IMG/VR virus record: IMGVR_UViG_3300036820_000005
Span: 1 to 64,000 of that record
Source of the DNA: a virus
DNA length: 64,000 nucleotides
Reading direction: 5' to 3' (one strand)
The notes under the pieces: generated by a model
The model's database searches: none
What the model was told of the DNA's origin: nothing
The model's input: only the letters and a program-made list of their open reading frames with translations
Translations under genes and position numbers: made by a program
Part shown: positions 16,100-33,259 of the stretch, one piece after another
How the letters are laid out: the number at the start of each line of letters is the position of its first letter
Position numbering within the stretch: the first letter of the stretch is position 1

Positions 16100-17686
16100 A
16101 TGACCGGGACAGTGACAACAATCAGCCCCCCCAGGGCGGCCATCACGATCCGGCACACCCACCAGGACGGGACGCTTGTCTACGGCACCGAGAAGGGGGA
16201 CGGCGTCTACGAACTGATCGGCCCCCGGACCACCGCCCGGTTCCGGTTCTTCCCGTCGATCAAGAGGATCGGGCTCGCCCAGTCCCGCGACCACCTGGCC
16301 AACCGCTACCAGATCGACGCGGCGCGCAAGGCGCTGGAGACGGCCGGGTTCGAGGTCAACGTCGAGATCGACGACACGCCCCGCGACGCCGGCGACGTCA
16401 AAGCCGACCGGGCGGAACGCCTGGACACCCGCTATGAGCGGCTGACCGCGAAGGCGGAACGGAACCTGGCCGAGGCTGAGGCCCGCAGGGCGCGTGCCGA
16501 TGAACTCGAATCAGGACGCTCGCCGATCCGGGCAGGCCACCACTCCGAACGCCACGCCAGGGCGGTCCGGAAACGCGTCGACCAGAACGACAGGGCAGCG
16601 GACGCCGCGCTCAGCGAGGCTGAGCGCGCCTCCAGGGCCGCGGCCGTGGTCGGCGACGCGGACGCCTACCGGGAACGCCCCTCGGTGATCCGCCGCCGCA
16701 TCGACAAGACCCAGGCTGAGATCCGCATCCTGCCGAAACGCTGGACGGATCACGTGCTATGGCAGGTAGTACGCAAGCAGGAGCCTGACCCGGCGTACAA
16801 GGAGGAACTGGAGGCGCGGCGGGTATTCCTCGAGCACCAGCTGGAGGCTGACCGTGCGGCCCTGGCCGCGCATGTGGCTAACGGGTACGTCCTGCTGACC
16901 TGCGACAGCCTGCATAAGGGCGACACGGTGACCTGGTCGACACGGTTCGGTGAGAACGCGGTAGTGACCCGGGTAAACCCCAAGACCGTCACGCTGAACC
17001 GGGACCGCTGGCCCCGCATCCTGCCGTACGAGCAGATCAAGACGGTCGACTGCCCGCATCAGGGCGCCACGGTCACCGTCCGGGCACCGAGGCGGGAGCG
17101 GCGGCCGAGGCCCGCGCCGGTCACGATTGACCGGCTGCCCGTGCGCGAGGCGCCGCTGGTCGTGGACGGGTCAGCCGAGTACTACCCGACCCCGGCCGAC
17201 GTGGCCGAGCTGATGATCGACATGGCCGGGCTTGAGGCTGGCATGACGGTGCTGGAACCGTCAGCCGGCCTGGGCGCGATCGCTGCGAAGGCAGCGCCGC
17301 TGGTCGCCTCGGTTCACTGCATCGAACGGGACTGGCAACTCGCCGAGCGGCTGCGCGCCACGGGGATCGGCGACGTGCGGTGCGCCGACTTCCTCGAAGT
17401 CCCGCCCGAACCGTATGACCGGGTGCTGATGAACCCGCCGTTCGGTGACGGCGCGGATCTGCGGCACGTCCTCCATGCCGAGCTGTTCCTGAAGCCCGGC
17501 GGCCGGCTGCTGTCGGTAATGGCGGCCGGGGTCGAGTTCCGGCAGGACCGCAAGTGGGCAGCCTTCCGTTCCCTGGTCGAGGGGCGCGGCGGCTGGATCA
17601 CCCGGCTACCCGACGACTCGTTCAAGCAGGCCGGGACCGGTGTCGGCACCGTCATCGTCGTGATCCCCGCGAGGGACACGCAATGA
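16100..17686 (+). CDS. DUF3560 domain fused to an N6-adenine-type DNA methyltransferase
   Basis: PIRAGHHSERHAR (DUF3560); YYPTP, VLEPSAGLG and MNPPF methyltransferase motifs. Confidence 0.85.
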   Translation: MTGTVTTISPPRAAITIRHTHQDGTLVYGTEKGDGVYELIGPRTTARFRFFPSIKRIGLAQSRDHLANRYQIDAARKALETAGFEVNVEIDDTPRDAGDVKADRAERLDTRYERLTAKAERNLAEAEARRARADELESGRSPIRAGHHSERHARAVRKRVDQNDRAADAALSEAERASRAAAVVGDADAYRERPSVIRRRIDKTQAEIRILPKRWTDHVLWQVVRKQEPDPAYKEELEARRVFLEHQLEADRAALAAHVANGYVLLTCDSLHKGDTVTWSTRFGENAVVTRVNPKTVTLNRDRWPRILPYEQIKTVDCPHQGATVTVRAPRRERRPRPAPVTIDRLPVREAPLVVDGSAEYYPTPADVAELMIDMAGLEAGMTVLEPSAGLGAIAAKAAPLVASVHCIERDWQLAERLRATGIGDVRCADFLEVPPEPYDRVLMNPPFGDGADLRHVLHAELFLKPGGRLLSVMAAGVEFRQDRKWAAFRSLVEGRGGWITRLPDDSFKQAGTGVGTVIVVIPARDTQ

Positions 17687-18141: not shown

Positions 18142-18401
18142 GGGCCTGGTTGAGGCGCCGCCTGGACGTGCTGTGCGGGCCGGTGCCGATCGTGCCGGGC
18201 ATGTGGTGGTTCGGCCGGGCGGGCAGGGAGACGATGCTGGCCGCGCTCGAAGACGCCTCGTATTACCGCAGCGACGGGCACATGGCCTGCGACACCTGCA
18301 CCGACACCGAGCCGTGCGGAGAACACGTCCCGGACCTGGCCATAGCCGACACGTACGACGACCTGAACGCCCGCCTGTCGCGGGCTGGACAAAGGAGGTA
18401 A
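18138..18401 (+). CDS. Small Cys/His hypothetical protein
   Basis: CDTC...C.EH motif; coupled start. Confidence 0.55.
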   Translation: MRAWLRRRLDVLCGPVPIVPGMWWFGRAGRETMLAALEDASYYRSDGHMACDTCTDTEPCGEHVPDLAIADTYDDLNARLSRAGQRR

Positions 18402-18648
18402 CCGATGAGGGCTCTCGCCGGGGCGCTCGCCCTGCATATCGCCGCCGCCGCCGACCGCGCAGTCGGCCGGCGGAATCTGCGGCGTCTCCGGCGGGAAGCC
18501 CGGTACTGCCCGTGAACGGCCTCATAGCCCACTGGTGGTGGGTGCCGTGCGTCCTCATGGCGGCCGCCTGGGCCGGTGTGTCCCTGCACCGGGCCGGGCG
18601 ACTCGCCGACCGCCTATCCCACGTTGACCGACTTGGAGAAGAACGCTG

Positions 18649-19536
18649 ATGGCTCTCACCCCCGCAGCCCTGGCCAGGCTCGAACCCGCAGAGCGCCTGG
18701 CCTTCCTCGCTGCCGCCTCCGCAATCGGCCGCGACGAGAACCCTGGCATCAACACCACCGTGGTGCTGCTGCTGACGGTGGAACGGCTGGTCAGCGAGAC
18801 CCCGCCCGGCCTGGTCGCCCAGCTCCGGCACCTGCACCGGCCCTACCGCATCTACAGCCCCTGCACCCACCCCGAACGCGACGACGACGGCCACCTCGAC
18901 CTGGAACTGGACGACGGCGACCTGACCTGCGAAGCGTCCTACCTGTATTCAATCTGCAAGGCCTGCTGCATGGTCGAAGACGAGCGGGGCGAATGGTGCT
19001 CGGACAGCCACGACCACCAGCGCGGCGAGCCGGTCTGCGACACCAGGGCACTCCTCGACGCGCTCCCGCCCCTTGCCTCACCCGCCGTCGATGTCGCGGA
19101 AGGCGGCTGCGAGGCCCTGCCGCTACCCGGCCAGCCGCACGACGGCCCGGTCCGCCGGTACGTCCGGATCTGCCCGGTCGGCCATTTCCGCCGCGGCCGG
19201 TCCTGCCAGGCCTGCGCTGGTATCGGCGCGATCGTCTGCGCCGAATGCCCCGGCCGCCAGCCCGCTCTTCTCATCCCTGCTGAGGTCTGGGAGCGGATCT
19301 CAGATGACCAGGACGGTCAGCTCACCGCCGAGGGCGCGGGCCTGCTGCTCGACCCTGACTGCCGGGACGGAAAGTGCGACTCCTGCGTCGGCCCGCCCTG
19401 CGAGCACAGGTGCCACCGGGCTGCCACCAGCCCGGCCAGCGTGGACCGGGCAGGCGGGTTAAGTGTCCGTGGAGACATGCCCAACCTCCGGTTGGGCGGG
19501 CCAGGTTCGAGTCCTGGAACCCGCTCCAAGAGGTGA
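18649..19536 (+). CDS. Cys-rich hypothetical protein whose 3' end overlaps the tRNA
   Basis: Many CxxC motifs; about the last 27 codons run through the tRNA sequence. Confidence 0.6.
   Translation: MALTPAALARLEPAERLAFLAAASAIGRDENPGINTTVVLLLTVERLVSETPPGLVAQLRHLHRPYRIYSPCTHPERDDDGHLDLELDDGDLTCEASYLYSICKACCMVEDERGEWCSDSHDHQRGEPVCDTRALLDALPPLASPAVDVAEGGCEALPLPGQPHDGPVRRYVRICPVGHFRRGRSCQACAGIGAIVCAECPGRQPALLIPAEVWERISDDQDGQLTAEGAGLLLDPDCRDGKCDSCVGPPCEHRCHRAATSPASVDRAGGLSVRGDMPNLRLGGPGSSPGTRSKR
19454..19528 (+). tRNA. tRNA-Gly(UCC), non-canonical, CCA encoded
   Basis: Acceptor GCGGGTT/AACCCGC followed by T and CCA; D arm GTGT-CCGTGGAG-ACAT; anticodon arm CCCAA-CCTCCGG-TTGGG (TCC at 19487-19489); T arm CCAGG-TTCGAGT-CCTGG. 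Deviations: A8, C14, C15/G48, G21, C33. Confidence 0.85.
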
Positions 19537-19542
19537 CCGCTT

Positions 19543-20889
19543 ATGTTCCTGGGAAGCGTGCCGCCGCAGATGCGGTCGATCGTCCGCGAGACCGTGGCCA
19601 GCTGGCCGGGCGACGACTTGTACGTCGCGTGCTGCGGGAACTTCACCCTGGAACGGGCAGTGTTCGGCCTCGGCCGCCGCGTCCACAGCGAGGACGTGTC
19701 GATTTACACGACCGCTGTCGGCCGCTGGCTGACCGGGCAGGACACGGGAATCGCCCTCGCCGGGGAGTCCGCCGGCGAGCTGGGATGGCTCGCCGGATCG
19801 CTCGGCTGCCCGATCGACGTCGTGGCCACCCTGATGCTCGGGTCGAACTTTCTCGCCTCAGTCGCGAAGGACGGCCCGTACTTCCGGCGTCTGGTCCGCG
19901 GCTACCGCGAGCAGTGGCCGGAACTGCACGCCGCCACGGTCGCGAAGCTCGAACGGGTCGCCGAGGCGCTGAAGATCGAGTCCTACACGTGCATGGACGT
20001 CCGGCAGTGGCTCGACCAGATCCCTCCCGGCGTTCCCCTGGTCACCTTCCCCCCGTTCGACGAAGCCGGGTACTCGGTGATGTGGGCGGCGCTGGACAGG
20101 CATTTCACCTGGGATCCCCCCGCCTTCGACGAGCTGAGCGACGCCGACGTCGACGCGCTGTTCGACACGATCCGCGACCGGCCGCTGTGGCTGTTCGGCG
20201 CGAAGCATGAGATACCGGAGCTGGCCGGCTACAAGCGCGGCGCGGTCCAGCCGACGAACCGGTCCAGGACGATCCACGTCTACGCTTCGCAGGGCCCGAC
20301 CCGGATCGCCCTGCCGAGGCAGGACATCGAGCCGGTAAAGGTGGCCAGGCTGGCACCCGGCGAGGAGATCGGCCGCCGCCTCGCCCTCGCGCCGCTCACC
20401 TCAGGCCAGTTCAATGCGCTCAGGTCGCAGTACCTGAACCCGAAGATCGCCCCTGCCGGGGCGACGTGGGCGTACGCGGTCCTGGTCGACGGGAAGATCA
20501 TCGGCGCGTTCGCGTTCCAGCGGTCGACGTACTTCCCCGACGAGGCGTACCTGCTGTCCGACTTCGCGGTCGCCCCGTCGGACTACCCGCGCCTGTCCAA
20601 GCTGGTGCTGCTCGCGGCGACCAGTTCCGAGGCGCGGCTGATCATGCAGCGGGCGATGTCCCGCCGCCTCGACGGCGTGTCGACGACGGCGTTCTCAAGA
20701 AACCAGATGTCGATGAAATACCGGGGTCTGTTCCAGCTGGTCAAAAAGGCCGCGACGCCCGACGACCCGGACTGGGCGTGGATGCTCACCTACCGGTCCC
20801 CGCTCGGCGGCCACACCCTCAAGCAGGGGCTGGCCACATGGCGGCAGAAGTGGGGCCAGCGGACGCCGAGAGAGGGAGATGCCGGGTGA
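19543..20889 (+). CDS. Phage DAM-like methyltransferase-fold domain fused to a GNAT/Mom-like domain (putative DNA-modifying antirestriction protein)
   Basis: N-terminal CCGNFTLER and VTFPPF (degenerate methyltransferase motifs I and IV). C-terminal AVLVDGKIIGAFAF..YLLSDFAV..RLSKLVL..TTAFS...SMKYRGLF resembles a GNAT fold. Confidence 0.7.
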   Translation: MFLGSVPPQMRSIVRETVASWPGDDLYVACCGNFTLERAVFGLGRRVHSEDVSIYTTAVGRWLTGQDTGIALAGESAGELGWLAGSLGCPIDVVATLMLGSNFLASVAKDGPYFRRLVRGYREQWPELHAATVAKLERVAEALKIESYTCMDVRQWLDQIPPGVPLVTFPPFDEAGYSVMWAALDRHFTWDPPAFDELSDADVDALFDTIRDRPLWLFGAKHEIPELAGYKRGAVQPTNRSRTIHVYASQGPTRIALPRQDIEPVKVARLAPGEEIGRRLALAPLTSGQFNALRSQYLNPKIAPAGATWAYAVLVDGKIIGAFAFQRSTYFPDEAYLLSDFAVAPSDYPRLSKLVLLAATSSEARLIMQRAMSRRLDGVSTTAFSRNQMSMKYRGLFQLVKKAATPDDPDWAWMLTYRSPLGGHTLKQGLATWRQKWGQRTPREGDAG

Positions 20890-21788
20890 AGCTCGAACTG
20901 GCCTACGTCACCGGAGACCCGCGGAAGCTCGCCTTCCTCGAAGTCAACGCCCGGTACTTCAAACATGAGGACTTCAAGCGGCTCGTCGCGAACATCCGCC
21001 GGGACGGCGTGCTGTCCTCAGTGCCGCTGGTCTGGAGAGACCCCGGCCAGGACGACTACCGCGAGGTGCTGTCCGGTAACCACCGCGTCAAGGCCGCGAT
21101 CGAGGCGGGGCTTGAGGAGATCGGCTGGCTGGAAACCTGCCAGCCCCTCAACCGCCAGCAGCGGGTCGCGCTCCAACTGGCCCACAACGCGATCGAAGGC
21201 GACGACGACCCGGCCACCCTCAAGCGGCTGTACGAGGAGCTGTACGACGTGGACTGGCGGGAGTACTCCGGCCTGGATGACCAGGTGCTCGGCCTGCTCG
21301 GCGACCAGGGCGCCGGAGGCCTGTCGGAGGCGAACCTGTCCTATGCGACGGTGCTGCTCACGTTCCTGCCGACTGAGCTGGAGGAGGCCAAGGCCGCGTT
21401 CGCAGAGGCCCGGAAGCAGGGCAGCGCGGACGAGTACCTGCTCGCCGCGATGGACCAGTACCAGGCCACCCTCGACGCGCTCGCATCCGTCCACGGGGCA
21501 CACAAGGTCGGGAACGTGGCTACTGCCCTCGCCCTCATCCTGGCCATCTTCGAGGCCCACATCGGCGACCTCCGCGACGGCTGGTACAACCCCGAAACCC
21601 GGGAGCCGAAACATGACGGCCGGATACCGGTCGAGACGCTGCTCGGCGCCCGGAACATCCCAGCAGGCCAGGCTGCGGTGATCGCCGCCGCGATCGACCG
21701 GGTGATCGGCAACGGAGACGCCGACAACCCCGGCCGCGCGCTAGAGCTCCTCTGCGCTGACGCCCTCGGAGGTCCTGATGCGTCTTGA
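20886..21788 (+). CDS. ParB/Srx-like N-terminal domain protein coupled to the modification gene
   Basis: NAR.F...F.RLV.NIRRDG...VLSGNHRVKAA...HNAIEGDDD; GTGA overlap. Confidence 0.8.
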   Translation: MKLELAYVTGDPRKLAFLEVNARYFKHEDFKRLVANIRRDGVLSSVPLVWRDPGQDDYREVLSGNHRVKAAIEAGLEEIGWLETCQPLNRQQRVALQLAHNAIEGDDDPATLKRLYEELYDVDWREYSGLDDQVLGLLGDQGAGGLSEANLSYATVLLTFLPTELEEAKAAFAEARKQGSADEYLLAAMDQYQATLDALASVHGAHKVGNVATALALILAIFEAHIGDLRDGWYNPETREPKHDGRIPVETLLGARNIPAGQAAVIAAAIDRVIGNGDADNPGRALELLCADALGGPDAS

Positions 21789-22035
21789 GGTGCTGGTACC
21801 CCGCGGGGAGCTGACCGCCGTCCTGGTACGCGATGTCCTGTTGCTCGTGCAGGTCACCGTGCCTCTGGGGACGGTCGAGTCGTGGACGCGGTTTGAGCGG
21901 CTGCTCGCCTACGACTGGGCGATGCGCGAGCACCTGGCGGCGTCGGATCACCCGGCTTCCCTGCGCCGGGACCGGCCGTCGTTCATCCCCGCGCCGGGAA
22001 CCACCGGCGCGCCTCTCACAGAAAGGACGCCTTAG
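21778..22035 (+). CDS. Small hypothetical protein
   Basis: GGAGG RBS; overlaps both neighbours. Confidence 0.55.
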   Translation: MRLEVLVPRGELTAVLVRDVLLLVQVTVPLGTVESWTRFERLLAYDWAMREHLAASDHPASLRRDRPSFIPAPGTTGAPLTERTP

Positions 22036-22802
22036 TGGCCCGGATCGACATGACCACGCGGGAACTGCACGACCTGTTCAGGCCGGTGCTCCCGCACGTC
22101 GGCACTGACAAGGAAACCCCCGAGCTGGCGGTGGTCAGGCTGGAGTTCGGCGACAACGCCGTCTACGCGGCCGCGACGGACAGGTACACCCTGGCCGCCG
22201 AGCGGTGGCCGCTCCCGCCGGCCGACAGGGGCAGGCTCGGCGGCCTGGTCGTCCACCTGAACGCCGCGGATGCGAAAGCGGCGCTGGCGCTGTTCACCTA
22301 CTCGAAGGAGTCCGACCCGCCGCTGCGGATCACCGTCGACACCGCGCCCGTCCACATCTCGGTCGCCGGGCAGCCCGGCGTCGTGACCCGGCTGGCCGTC
22401 ACAGTCCAGCACGCCGACGACGGCACGCGCCTGGTCCTGCACGACGAGCGCAACCCGGCGAAGGACCCGCTGGCCGCGTGGCGCAGGAAAATCCACGCCG
22501 CCATGACACGGCCCCGCGCCAGCACGATCGAGGCGGCCGACCTGTTCCCCGGGACGCTCGGCCGTTGGGCTGCCGCGGCCCGGAAAGGCGAGCGGTTCAG
22601 CGTCTACCCTGCCCCCGACCAGGCCGACCCGATCCTCGTGGTGGTGGAGGAGCATTTCGCTGGCCTGTGGTCGGTCCCGGGCTACCTGGGAGAGCCCAGG
22701 GAGGTCCTCGACGCCCTGCCGTGGCGGTGGGAACTCGACCCCCTCGACGCTGATGTCGCAGCCGGGCTGGTCGACGTGCAGACAGGGGAGCGTGCCGTCT
22801 GA
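22035..22802 (+). CDS. DNA polymerase III beta-clamp-like (DnaN-like) protein
   Basis: P.LA.VRLE.....V.A.ATDRYTLA clamp motif; C-terminal PILV..E.HF.GL. Confidence 0.65.
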   Translation: MARIDMTTRELHDLFRPVLPHVGTDKETPELAVVRLEFGDNAVYAAATDRYTLAAERWPLPPADRGRLGGLVVHLNAADAKAALALFTYSKESDPPLRITVDTAPVHISVAGQPGVVTRLAVTVQHADDGTRLVLHDERNPAKDPLAAWRRKIHAAMTRPRASTIEAADLFPGTLGRWAAAARKGERFSVYPAPDQADPILVVVEEHFAGLWSVPGYLGEPREVLDALPWRWELDPLDADVAAGLVDVQTGERAV

Positions 22803-27787: not shown

Positions 27788-27830
27788 GCCCGGCAGGCAG
27801 CCAGACCCGTTCGAGGCGGGTCCGGGCACG
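27788..27830 (+). ncRNA. tRNA-elbow-like structured element, copy 1
   Basis: GCCCG-GCAGGCAGCCA-GACCCG-TTCGAGG-CGGGTC-CGGGC-ACG. Confidence 0.7.
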
Positions 27831-33216: not shown

Positions 33217-33259
33217 GCCCGGCCGGCAGGCGTCACGGTTCGAGCCCGTGACGGGCACG
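33217..33259 (+). ncRNA. tRNA-elbow-like structured element, copy 2
   Basis: GCCCG-GCCGGCAGGCG-TCACGG-TTCGAGC-CCGTGA-CGGGC-ACG. Confidence 0.7.

Follow-up and report, generated by a model that had tools for sequence, protein, structure and literature searches.

We analysed a 64,000-nucleotide (nt) stretch of virus DNA, hereafter the window, which forms the first 64 kb of the 111,056-bp IMG/VR record IMGVR_UViG_3300036820_000005 (70% G+C; CheckV completeness estimate 91%) and whose source is a large actinobacterial phage. The window holds a three-part kit consisting of a non-canonical tRNA-Gly, a gene for an enzyme that fuses a Dam-like domain to a GNAT-fold domain, and a gene for a ParB-like protein. 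The same kit recurs in most related phages, and the tRNA therefore probably gives glycine to phage DNA rather than to ribosomes. We put at roughly 0.58 the probability that the tRNA is reserved for the kit, avoids the ribosome and donates glycine for an adenine modification like that of Mom (the glycyl-donor reading). Mom of bacteriophage Mu moves glycine from Gly-tRNAGly onto the N6 of adenine in double-stranded DNA (PMC13219725; bioRxiv 10.1101/2023.03.24.534169), and its use of Gly-tRNAGly had been correctly named in an earlier reading of the window made from its letters (the sequence-only reading). Any host tRNA-Gly isoacceptor can serve as the donor (PMC13219725). The Mom adduct then rearranges to N6-carbamoylmethyl-adenine, resulting in restriction evasion (PMC13219725).

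The tRNA-Gly(UCC) is 75 nt long, lies on the plus strand at 19454..19528 and has an encoded CCA end, as judged from ARAGORN, the sequence, a covariance model of the family, the predicted fold and a T-stem energy model. A 14-nt spacer with a Shine-Dalgarno-like AAGAGG (19529..19542, plus strand; read from the sequence) separates the CCA end from the ATG at 19543, which opens the gene of the 448-aa fusion enzyme (19543..20889, plus strand; Pfam, PHROG, AlphaFold2 (AF2) model, structure matches and motif columns). The gene for the 300-aa ParB-like protein (20886..21788, plus strand; Pfam, PHROG and conserved columns) has a GTG start at 20886 that overlaps the stop codon of the fusion gene as GTGA. 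A scan of 18400-22300 detected no promoter-like or terminator-like site, and thus none between the tRNA and the genes. The sequence-only reading had described the tRNA in detail together with its position, the 14-nt gap and the adjoining genes, and it was right wherever we checked it against the sequence, ARAGORN, Pfam and PHROG.

Bacterial glycyl-tRNA synthetase (GlyRS) recognizes its substrate by the identity determinants G1-C72, C2-G71, G3-C70, U73, C35 and C36 (PMC7826273), and the window tRNA carries this set in full. Its core is unusual, with A8, C14 and C33 in place of U8, A14 and U33, a C15/G48 pair and G21, and its T-stem includes the pairs C49-G65, C50-G64 and A51-U63. The minimum-energy fold was a cloverleaf with stems of 7, 4, 5 and 5 bp (-37.6 kcal/mol, z = -2.9), in which C32-G38 and C33-G37 shut the anticodon loop down to a UCC triloop. 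The tRNA was classed as non-canonical because the Rfam tRNA model RF00005 had no match in the window even at E <= 1; the family covariance model scored it at 69.2 bits (E 5.6e-12). According to ARAGORN, it is the single tRNA in the window and in the entire 111,056-bp record. GGA, the codon best read by a UCC anticodon, is the rarest glycine codon in the confident open reading frames (ORFs) of the phage (5.6%). On the upstream side, a plus-strand ORF at 18649-19536 encodes 295 aa with a Cys-rich tail, had no match in Pfam and PHROG searches, and is marked as coding by its pattern of G+C at third codon positions. It runs through the whole tRNA gene to a stop codon at 19534-19536, so that excision of the tRNA from a shared transcript would strip the mRNA of this ORF of its stop codon.

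Relatives of the kit were collected by several routes. A word-seeded search returned 478 relatives of the fusion protein, and a profile search with the GNAT domain over 1.84 billion representatives matched 973 clusters at 50% identity, of which the best 150 all share one architecture; a genome-contig scan with the fusion protein alone returned one locus only. The family alignment led to 80 viral loci, whose flanks of about 2.5 kb were scanned by ARAGORN. At about 50 of the 80, the gene is adjoined by a Gly-type tRNA, whose anticodon is UCC, CCC or ACC, or by a relative of such a tRNA with an odd loop, and tRNA types other than Gly were not called by ARAGORN in these flanks. With a covariance model built from the family copies, a Gly-type tRNA was found in 55 of 85 homologous loci (34-56% protein identity) in addition to the window, the linkage that the sequence-only reading had proposed as a test of its idea. 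Nearly all of these tRNAs are on the same strand as the gene and 15-430 nt upstream of it, the exceptions being two inverted copies, one copy 1.8 kb upstream and one downstream.

Even at 34% protein identity the linkage is kept, and it spans contigs of Actinomycetota type, of Planctomycetota and of low GC content. In Mycobacterium phage Jeon, an annotated tRNA-Gly(tcc) lies directly upstream of the homologous gene. Gordonia phage Soos has an unannotated tRNA-like element upstream that was missed by ARAGORN, with a degenerate T-arm, the acceptor GCGCGAC/GTCGCGC, U73, CCA and, as its anticodon loop, CCCCCGG. A quick maximum-likelihood tree of the protein places tRNA-bearing loci in most of the larger clades. 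Loci without a tRNA fall into two tight clades and a handful of singletons, and at least 5-8 gains or losses are needed to explain this distribution. The linkage of tRNA and enzyme is far beyond chance.

Several loci differ in their surroundings. One (L065), from a metagenomic phage, has two slightly different kit tRNAs in tandem upstream of the fusion gene (1478-1551 and 1553-1626), with the anticodon CCC. The sister clade of the window protein consists of tRNA-less Streptomyces elements, some 20 kb long, in which a DUF488-like gene lies upstream. In loci L007-L020, L022 and L027, the upstream 300 nt show this gene along with a strong GC hairpin and an AT-richer box that is conserved. The low-GC tRNA-less loci L068, L074, L077, L078 and L081 also have a DUF488-like gene upstream, and a search of the phage record of the window for DUF488 found none. 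An attP or integration-site tRNA fragment was ruled out as the origin of the kit tRNA, which is complete, divergent and away from the ends of the provirus records, where the host tRNAs are Asn and Met.

The aligned tRNA family is held together by its structure. Across 39 distinct copies, 95.2% of cells were paired compared with 69.4% in shuffles, the covariation score reached 0.664 (shuffles, 0.18; slid partners, no more than 0.13), and 19 of 23 pairs showed compensatory changes. Among the 51 Gly-type members, G1, C2, G3, C70, G71, C72, U73, C35 and C36 were invariant or nearly so, extending to the whole family what had been proposed for the window, and acceptor pairs 4-7 were free to vary. 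The core was relaxed, with U8 in 37, A14 in 35, U33 in 41 and U55 in 40 of 52 copies and G18/G19 weakly kept. In 35 of the 39 distinct copies, position 32 makes a standard pair with position 38, the family anticodons include ACC, odd loop sizes occur, and only 1 of 20 copies met the Rfam RF00005 gathering threshold (19 were below it). The relaxed positions are ones that translation requires, in contrast to the GlyRS set. The sequence-only reading had also singled out C33 and A51-U63, and we rejected both as family hallmarks. C33 occurs in only 5 of 52 copies and pairs with G37 in the window; A51-U63 occurs in 27 of 52, but the property that it stood for is general, since the G51-C63 pair usual in tRNA-Gly is absent from all 52.

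We then examined the proteins with which the tRNA travels. The fusion protein matched phrog_7858 (1.8e-101), and its residues 2-267 matched PF22555 (DAM-like-phage1; 1.1e-76, 258.2 bits, cut-off 27). The NCBIfam and PADLOC searches had no family for it, PF02086 did not match it, and a sequence search of the PDB with the family profile gave nothing meaningful (best E 0.13, kinases). In the AF2 model of the complete enzyme (mean confidence, pLDDT, 87.3), the Dam-like domain is an alpha-class Rossmann fold with a helical target-recognition insert. When residues 1-250 were compared with 48,161 chains by VIA-align, the top four were all of the Dam family, namely E. coli Dam 2ore (Z 12.1), Mcbe1 7m6b (11.9), DpnM 2dpm (11.7) and T4 Dam 1q0s (11.7). 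The ParB-like gene is downstream of the fusion gene in all 85 loci with enough sequence. Its product matched ParB_N (PF02195) at 3.8e-5 and 24.1 bits by hmmscan (cut-off 26.3) and at 26.3 bits in a six-frame search, phrog_7405 (3.2e-62), and PHROGs of ParB-like type (1e-9 to 1e-10). The ParB/Srx N-terminal domain is marked by a G-x-x-R motif; SGNHR is conserved across 38 homologues of the ParB-like protein, which may have that fold. ParB-like proteins are documented activators of phage thymidine dioxygenases, so that ParB-dependent modification of DNA bases has a precedent (PMC13229309).

These partners bear on the possibility that the tRNA-like RNA is the substrate, guide or decoy of the system rather than its donor, where the enzyme would acylate or methylate the tRNA, or the RNA would absorb a host anti-phage toxin (TacT-type GNAT toxins or the toxSAS FaRel2). 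GNATs that target tRNA do exist, such as TacT and TmcA (PMC13219725), defence toxins are known to target tRNA-Gly (PMC11559606), and strict linkage shows a functional tie but not its direction. The Dam-family DNA-adenine fold and the obligate ParB-like DNA-binding partner nevertheless point to DNA as the target, and a decoy would need neither invariant C35 and C36 together with U73 nor residence in an operon with this enzyme across phyla. We consider this explanation improbable.

To much the same degree, we doubt that the tRNA-like element acts as a signal for RNA processing or regulation, at which cutting by RNase P and RNase Z frees or stabilises the downstream mRNA and aminoacylation is irrelevant. 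Its CCA end 14 nt before the ATG and directly ahead of the Shine-Dalgarno sequence, the ORF that reads through it, and several mini acceptor/T-arm hairpins found after genes in the same phage would suit such a role. The mini-elements show, however, that an acceptor/T-arm minihelix would suffice for that purpose, whereas in the kit a full cloverleaf covaries with an invariant C35, C36 and U73, as fits GlyRS recognition. The distance from tRNA to gene also varies over 15-430 nt, and there are the inverted, 1.8-kb-upstream and downstream copies.

Returning to the glycyl-donor reading, we inspected the motifs of both enzyme domains in 45 sequences. Motif IV, which follows strand 4 of the Dam-like domain, is (F/Y)PP(F/T) in 45 of 45, with F in the first position in 31, Y in 14, and PP invariant; the window protein has FPPF at 169-172 in place of (D/N/S)PP(Y/F). 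The chemistry of DPPY enzymes is well established, and the Asp, Asn or Ser of motif IV serves the N6-methyltransferases. None of these residues was ever present at that position, and since they are replaced in all sequences, methyl transfer appears unlikely, whereas the adenine or adenosine pocket appears to be kept. Two residues do not vary, G32 of motif I and D51, which lies where strand 2 ends.

The C-terminal domain (residues 278-436) matched PF22559 (GNAT-phage-like) at 6.5e-51 and 172.8 bits (cut-off 27), and folded alone it gave a compact GNAT (pLDDT 94.2) that Foldseek related to many GNATs with a probability of 1.0. Mom (8bv8_B) ranked second of 48,161 chains by VIA-align (Z 10.9, range 10.4-10.9; root-mean-square deviation 3.1 A; 140 residues aligned). 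The last two strands (126-133 and 142-149) are linked by about 8 residues, and the helix-turn-helix (HTH)-like insertion of Mom is absent. The segment of strand 4 and helix 3 reads V-x-P-[ST]-x-Y-x-R-L-[SA]-K-L, and the Q/R-x-x-G-x-G/A motif that binds the pyrophosphate of coenzyme A (CoA) is absent in 45 of 45 sequences. Residues of the GNAT domain that do not vary include R294, Y336, D340, K353, E363 and K392-Y393-R394. The Mom family model PF25680 did not match the GNAT domain of the window at E <= 10; the same hidden Markov model scored Mu Mom at 2.4e-75. The sequence-only reading had called this domain Mom-like and GNAT-like: the GNAT fold was recovered by PF22559, Foldseek and VIA-align, but kinship with Mom in sequence was not, and the domain is at best Mom-like in action and is not a member of the Mom family. 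None of the computational outcomes that the sequence-only reading had listed against its own idea was seen, since most homologous loci have the linked tRNA, the C-terminal domain has the GNAT fold and the GlyRS elements are invariant. Some relatives of the fusion enzyme reach 600-720 aa (P0060, P0088, P0097, P0100, P0106 and P0120); P0060 is named 'Hint domain-containing' by its source, a name suggestive of inteins inserted in the fusion gene.

At the limit of detectable homology, a related arrangement was found in gut phages. The Faecalibacterium phage FP_Brigit encodes a protein about 24% identical to that of the window in the same gene order, and the upstream tRNA of its clade has the anticodon CUU, A73 and an unusual C1-G72 acceptor. 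In 41 of 80 loci this CUU/A73 tRNA lies within 600 nt upstream, and at least 7 further loci have it at a greater upstream distance, for a total of at least 48. In a sister clade, about 60% identical to the Brigit protein, 34 of 43 loci have instead a U73 tRNA of the UCC/CCC type; its acceptor, with C1-G72, C2-G71 and G3-C70, is the same as in the Brigit clade. Among the gut-phage loci, L003 (3732-3808) and L088-L167 belong to the CUU/A73 clade and L185-L225 to the UCC/U73 sister clade. In Brigit, NPPT replaces the (F/Y)PPF of the main-family Dam-like domain. The tRNA thus stays with the enzyme as far as homology can be followed and yet changes its identity, as would be expected of a co-substrate and not of a hitch-hiking translational tRNA.

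Both sets of results concern the proposal that the enzyme draws on a conventional donor, with the GNAT domain taking acyl-CoA or the Dam-like domain taking S-adenosylmethionine (SAM), next to a tRNA that is only a conserved neighbour. GNATs usually do use acyl-CoA, the best structural matches were mostly acetyltransferases, the SAM-region residues G32 and D51 are invariant, and one-third of the loci have no tRNA. Against these stand the universal absence of the CoA motif and the equally universal replacement of the motif IV D/N by F or Y; moreover, a mere neighbour would neither hold the GlyRS set while losing translational features nor switch its type with the enzyme clade. This proposal seems to us slightly less probable again than the two preceding ones.

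Whether the tRNA could enter translation was addressed with the additive T-stem model of Schrader and Uhlenbeck for binding to elongation factor Tu (EF-Tu; PMC3239215, Table 2), a calculation rather than a binding assay. The predicted energy was -9.37 +/- 0.45 kcal/mol for 44 copies of the kit family, none of which was tighter than -10.2, and -9.2 kcal/mol for the window tRNA, compared with -10.8 to -11.0 kcal/mol for the bacterial tRNA-Gly classes and -9.5 kcal/mol for the staphylococcal cell-wall tRNA-Gly. The family T-stems are accordingly predicted to bind EF-Tu about 1.5 kcal/mol more weakly than normal tRNA-Gly. As an internal control, the planctomycete metagenome-assembled genome that contains locus L004 has three canonical host tRNA-Gly genes with predicted T-stem energies of -11.0 to -11.2, and the kit tRNA of the same genome, which has A33 and a non-TTC T-loop, was predicted at -9.3. 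The suggestion in the sequence-only reading that the tRNA avoids the ribosome gains from these predicted energies. An ordinary phage tRNA that supplements GGA/GGG translation and sits beside the gene by shared phage ancestry only, as could be argued from the frequency of tRNAs in phages and the ARAGORN call of tRNA-Gly, is very improbable given that it would be the sole tRNA in 111 kb serving the rarest glycine codon, that 19 of 20 relatives fall under the Rfam threshold, that a 32-38 pair closes the loop, joined in the window by C33-G37, that the predicted EF-Tu affinity is far below that of tRNA-Gly, that ACC anticodons and odd loop sizes occur in the family, and that the linkage survives to 34% identity across such different contigs.

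The mechanism that we propose for the glycyl-donor kit would run as follows. The tRNA-like RNA would be transcribed with the operon and cut out by the tRNA-processing enzymes of the host, and the host GlyRS would charge it with glycine, because it keeps exactly the bacterial GlyRS identity set. The weak EF-Tu T-stem, the relaxed elbow and the closed anticodon loop would keep the Gly-tRNA off EF-Tu and the ribosome, giving a private pool of activated glycine. The Dam-like domain, with its pocket of PP and aromatic residues retained and its catalytic Asp/Asn lost, would find the DNA site and flip out an adenine, onto whose N6 the GNAT domain would pass the glycyl group from the 3' end of the tRNA in the fashion of Mom. 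The adduct may rearrange to N6-carbamoylmethyl-adenine. The ParB-like protein would load or activate the enzyme on DNA, by analogy with the ParB-dependent thymidine dioxygenases, and the modified DNA could then withstand host restriction.

Several observations weigh against this mechanism. About a third of the loci are without a tRNA, including the closest relatives of the window protein in the Streptomyces elements, and one 70-kb provirus of this tRNA-less Streptomyces-type clade has no such tRNA anywhere; the enzyme is therefore not strictly dependent on a private tRNA, which is an accessory and not a requirement. In structure, Mom is no clearer a match to the GNAT domain than about 15 ordinary acetyltransferase GNATs, whose scores lie within one Z unit of it, and an hhalign comparison with Mu Mom gave a probability of 0.1%, indicating no sequence relation. 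The invariant G32 and D51 leave room for a Dam-like domain that still binds SAM or another adenosine ligand, and a loss of CoA use is deduced from the missing motif in the protein sequences. The alignment of the tRNA family was seeded by ARAGORN and is biased toward tRNA-like copies. The analysis shows the parts, how they are linked, which tRNA positions are conserved, and the folds and motifs; from these we infer charging with glycine, EF-Tu avoidance, transfer to DNA, the product, the part played by ParB and anti-restriction.

Elsewhere in the phage, a 528-aa protein encoded at 16100-17686 (plus strand) contains DUF3560 and an N6-methyltransferase-like domain and matched a PHROG 'DNA methyltransferase' at 2.7e-46; lying 2 kb upstream of the kit, it is another candidate for DNA modification. 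Mini tRNA-like hairpins consisting of an acceptor stem and a T-arm only were found at 27788-27830 and 33217-33258 (plus strand), each just 3' of a gene. They run in the order GCCCGG, a GG-containing linker, a 6-bp stem, a TTCGAG loop, the return strand, CCGGGC and then ACG, and may be punctuation signals for RNase P and RNase Z. Beyond the window, at 85371-85574 of the phage record, ParB_N has another weak match.

If the glycyl-donor reading is true, tRNA-dependent DNA hypermodification would not be a curiosity of phage Mu but a strategy widespread among phages, those of soil actinobacteria and of the gut included, and it would be carried out by a second, unrelated GNAT lineage, to judge from the 973 clusters that match the GNAT domain. 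To our knowledge, the kit tRNA would then be the first known virus-encoded tRNA evolved for a job outside translation, and some 'odd' or unannotated phage tRNAs, such as the copy in Gordonia phage Soos missed by tRNA finders, would be explained. A tRNA-programmed DNA-labelling enzyme, with tRNA identity maybe setting the added group, could serve as a tool. The broadest form of the idea is that many phages have a private, translation-incompetent tRNA solely to deliver an activated amino acid to a DNA-modifying enzyme, in which a Mom-unrelated GNAT is aimed at adenine by a catalytically dead Dam-like domain with a ParB-like helper, the amino acid being glycine here and maybe another in the CUU/A73 gut-phage clade, which would turn the identity of the tRNA into a programmable determinant of DNA hypermodification chemistry; for this we see evenly balanced odds. 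The kit is open to direct testing in culturable Mycobacterium smegmatis and Gordonia phages.

A literature search, with subscription journals outside its coverage, found no prior description of a kit of tRNA, Dam-like/GNAT fusion and ParB-like protein. The parts can be compared with known systems one at a time. The Dam-family alpha-class methyltransferases (2ore, 2dpm and 1q0s) resemble the N-terminal domain of the window enzyme in their colinear layout, in which motif I with its glycine lies close to the N-terminus, a helical insert comes next, and strand 4 is followed by a PP-aromatic motif IV, but they differ from it in that the window domain has (F/Y)PPF as motif IV and no PF02086 match. 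The ParB-dependent phage thymidine dioxygenases 5mYOX (PMC13229309) likewise place a DNA-base modifier beside an orphan ParB-like protein and need their cognate ParB, whereas they belong to the iron/2-oxoglutarate dioxygenase class and act on thymine. The staphylococcal non-proteogenic tRNA-Gly that feed the FemXAB/FmhB pentaglycine bridge (PMC7826273) share with the kit tRNA a retained GlyRS identity and a weak EF-Tu T-stem of the A51-U63 type, the predicted energy of the window tRNA being weaker still than theirs, and they supply a GNAT-fold aminoacyl-transferase outside translation. They are chromosomal, confined to staphylococci and directed to a peptidoglycan precursor as the acceptor; in contrast, the kit tRNA is phage-encoded, of unrelated lineage, closed in its anticodon loop and linked to a DNA-directed enzyme. 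A further parallel is Mom of bacteriophage Mu (PF25680, 8bv8; Silva et al. 2026, PMC13219725), also a phage GNAT-fold enzyme, whose description is without mention of a phage-encoded tRNA, ParB or a methyltransferase fusion (PMC13219725). Mom is a single-domain dimer that binds DNA through an HTH-like insertion (residues ~175-209) essential for its activity (PMC13219725), whereas the window GNAT has no such insertion, is fused to a Dam-like domain and is always paired with a ParB-like protein. While Mom draws on any host tRNA-Gly, the kit usually brings its own non-canonical tRNA, for what by analogy would be the same chemistry.

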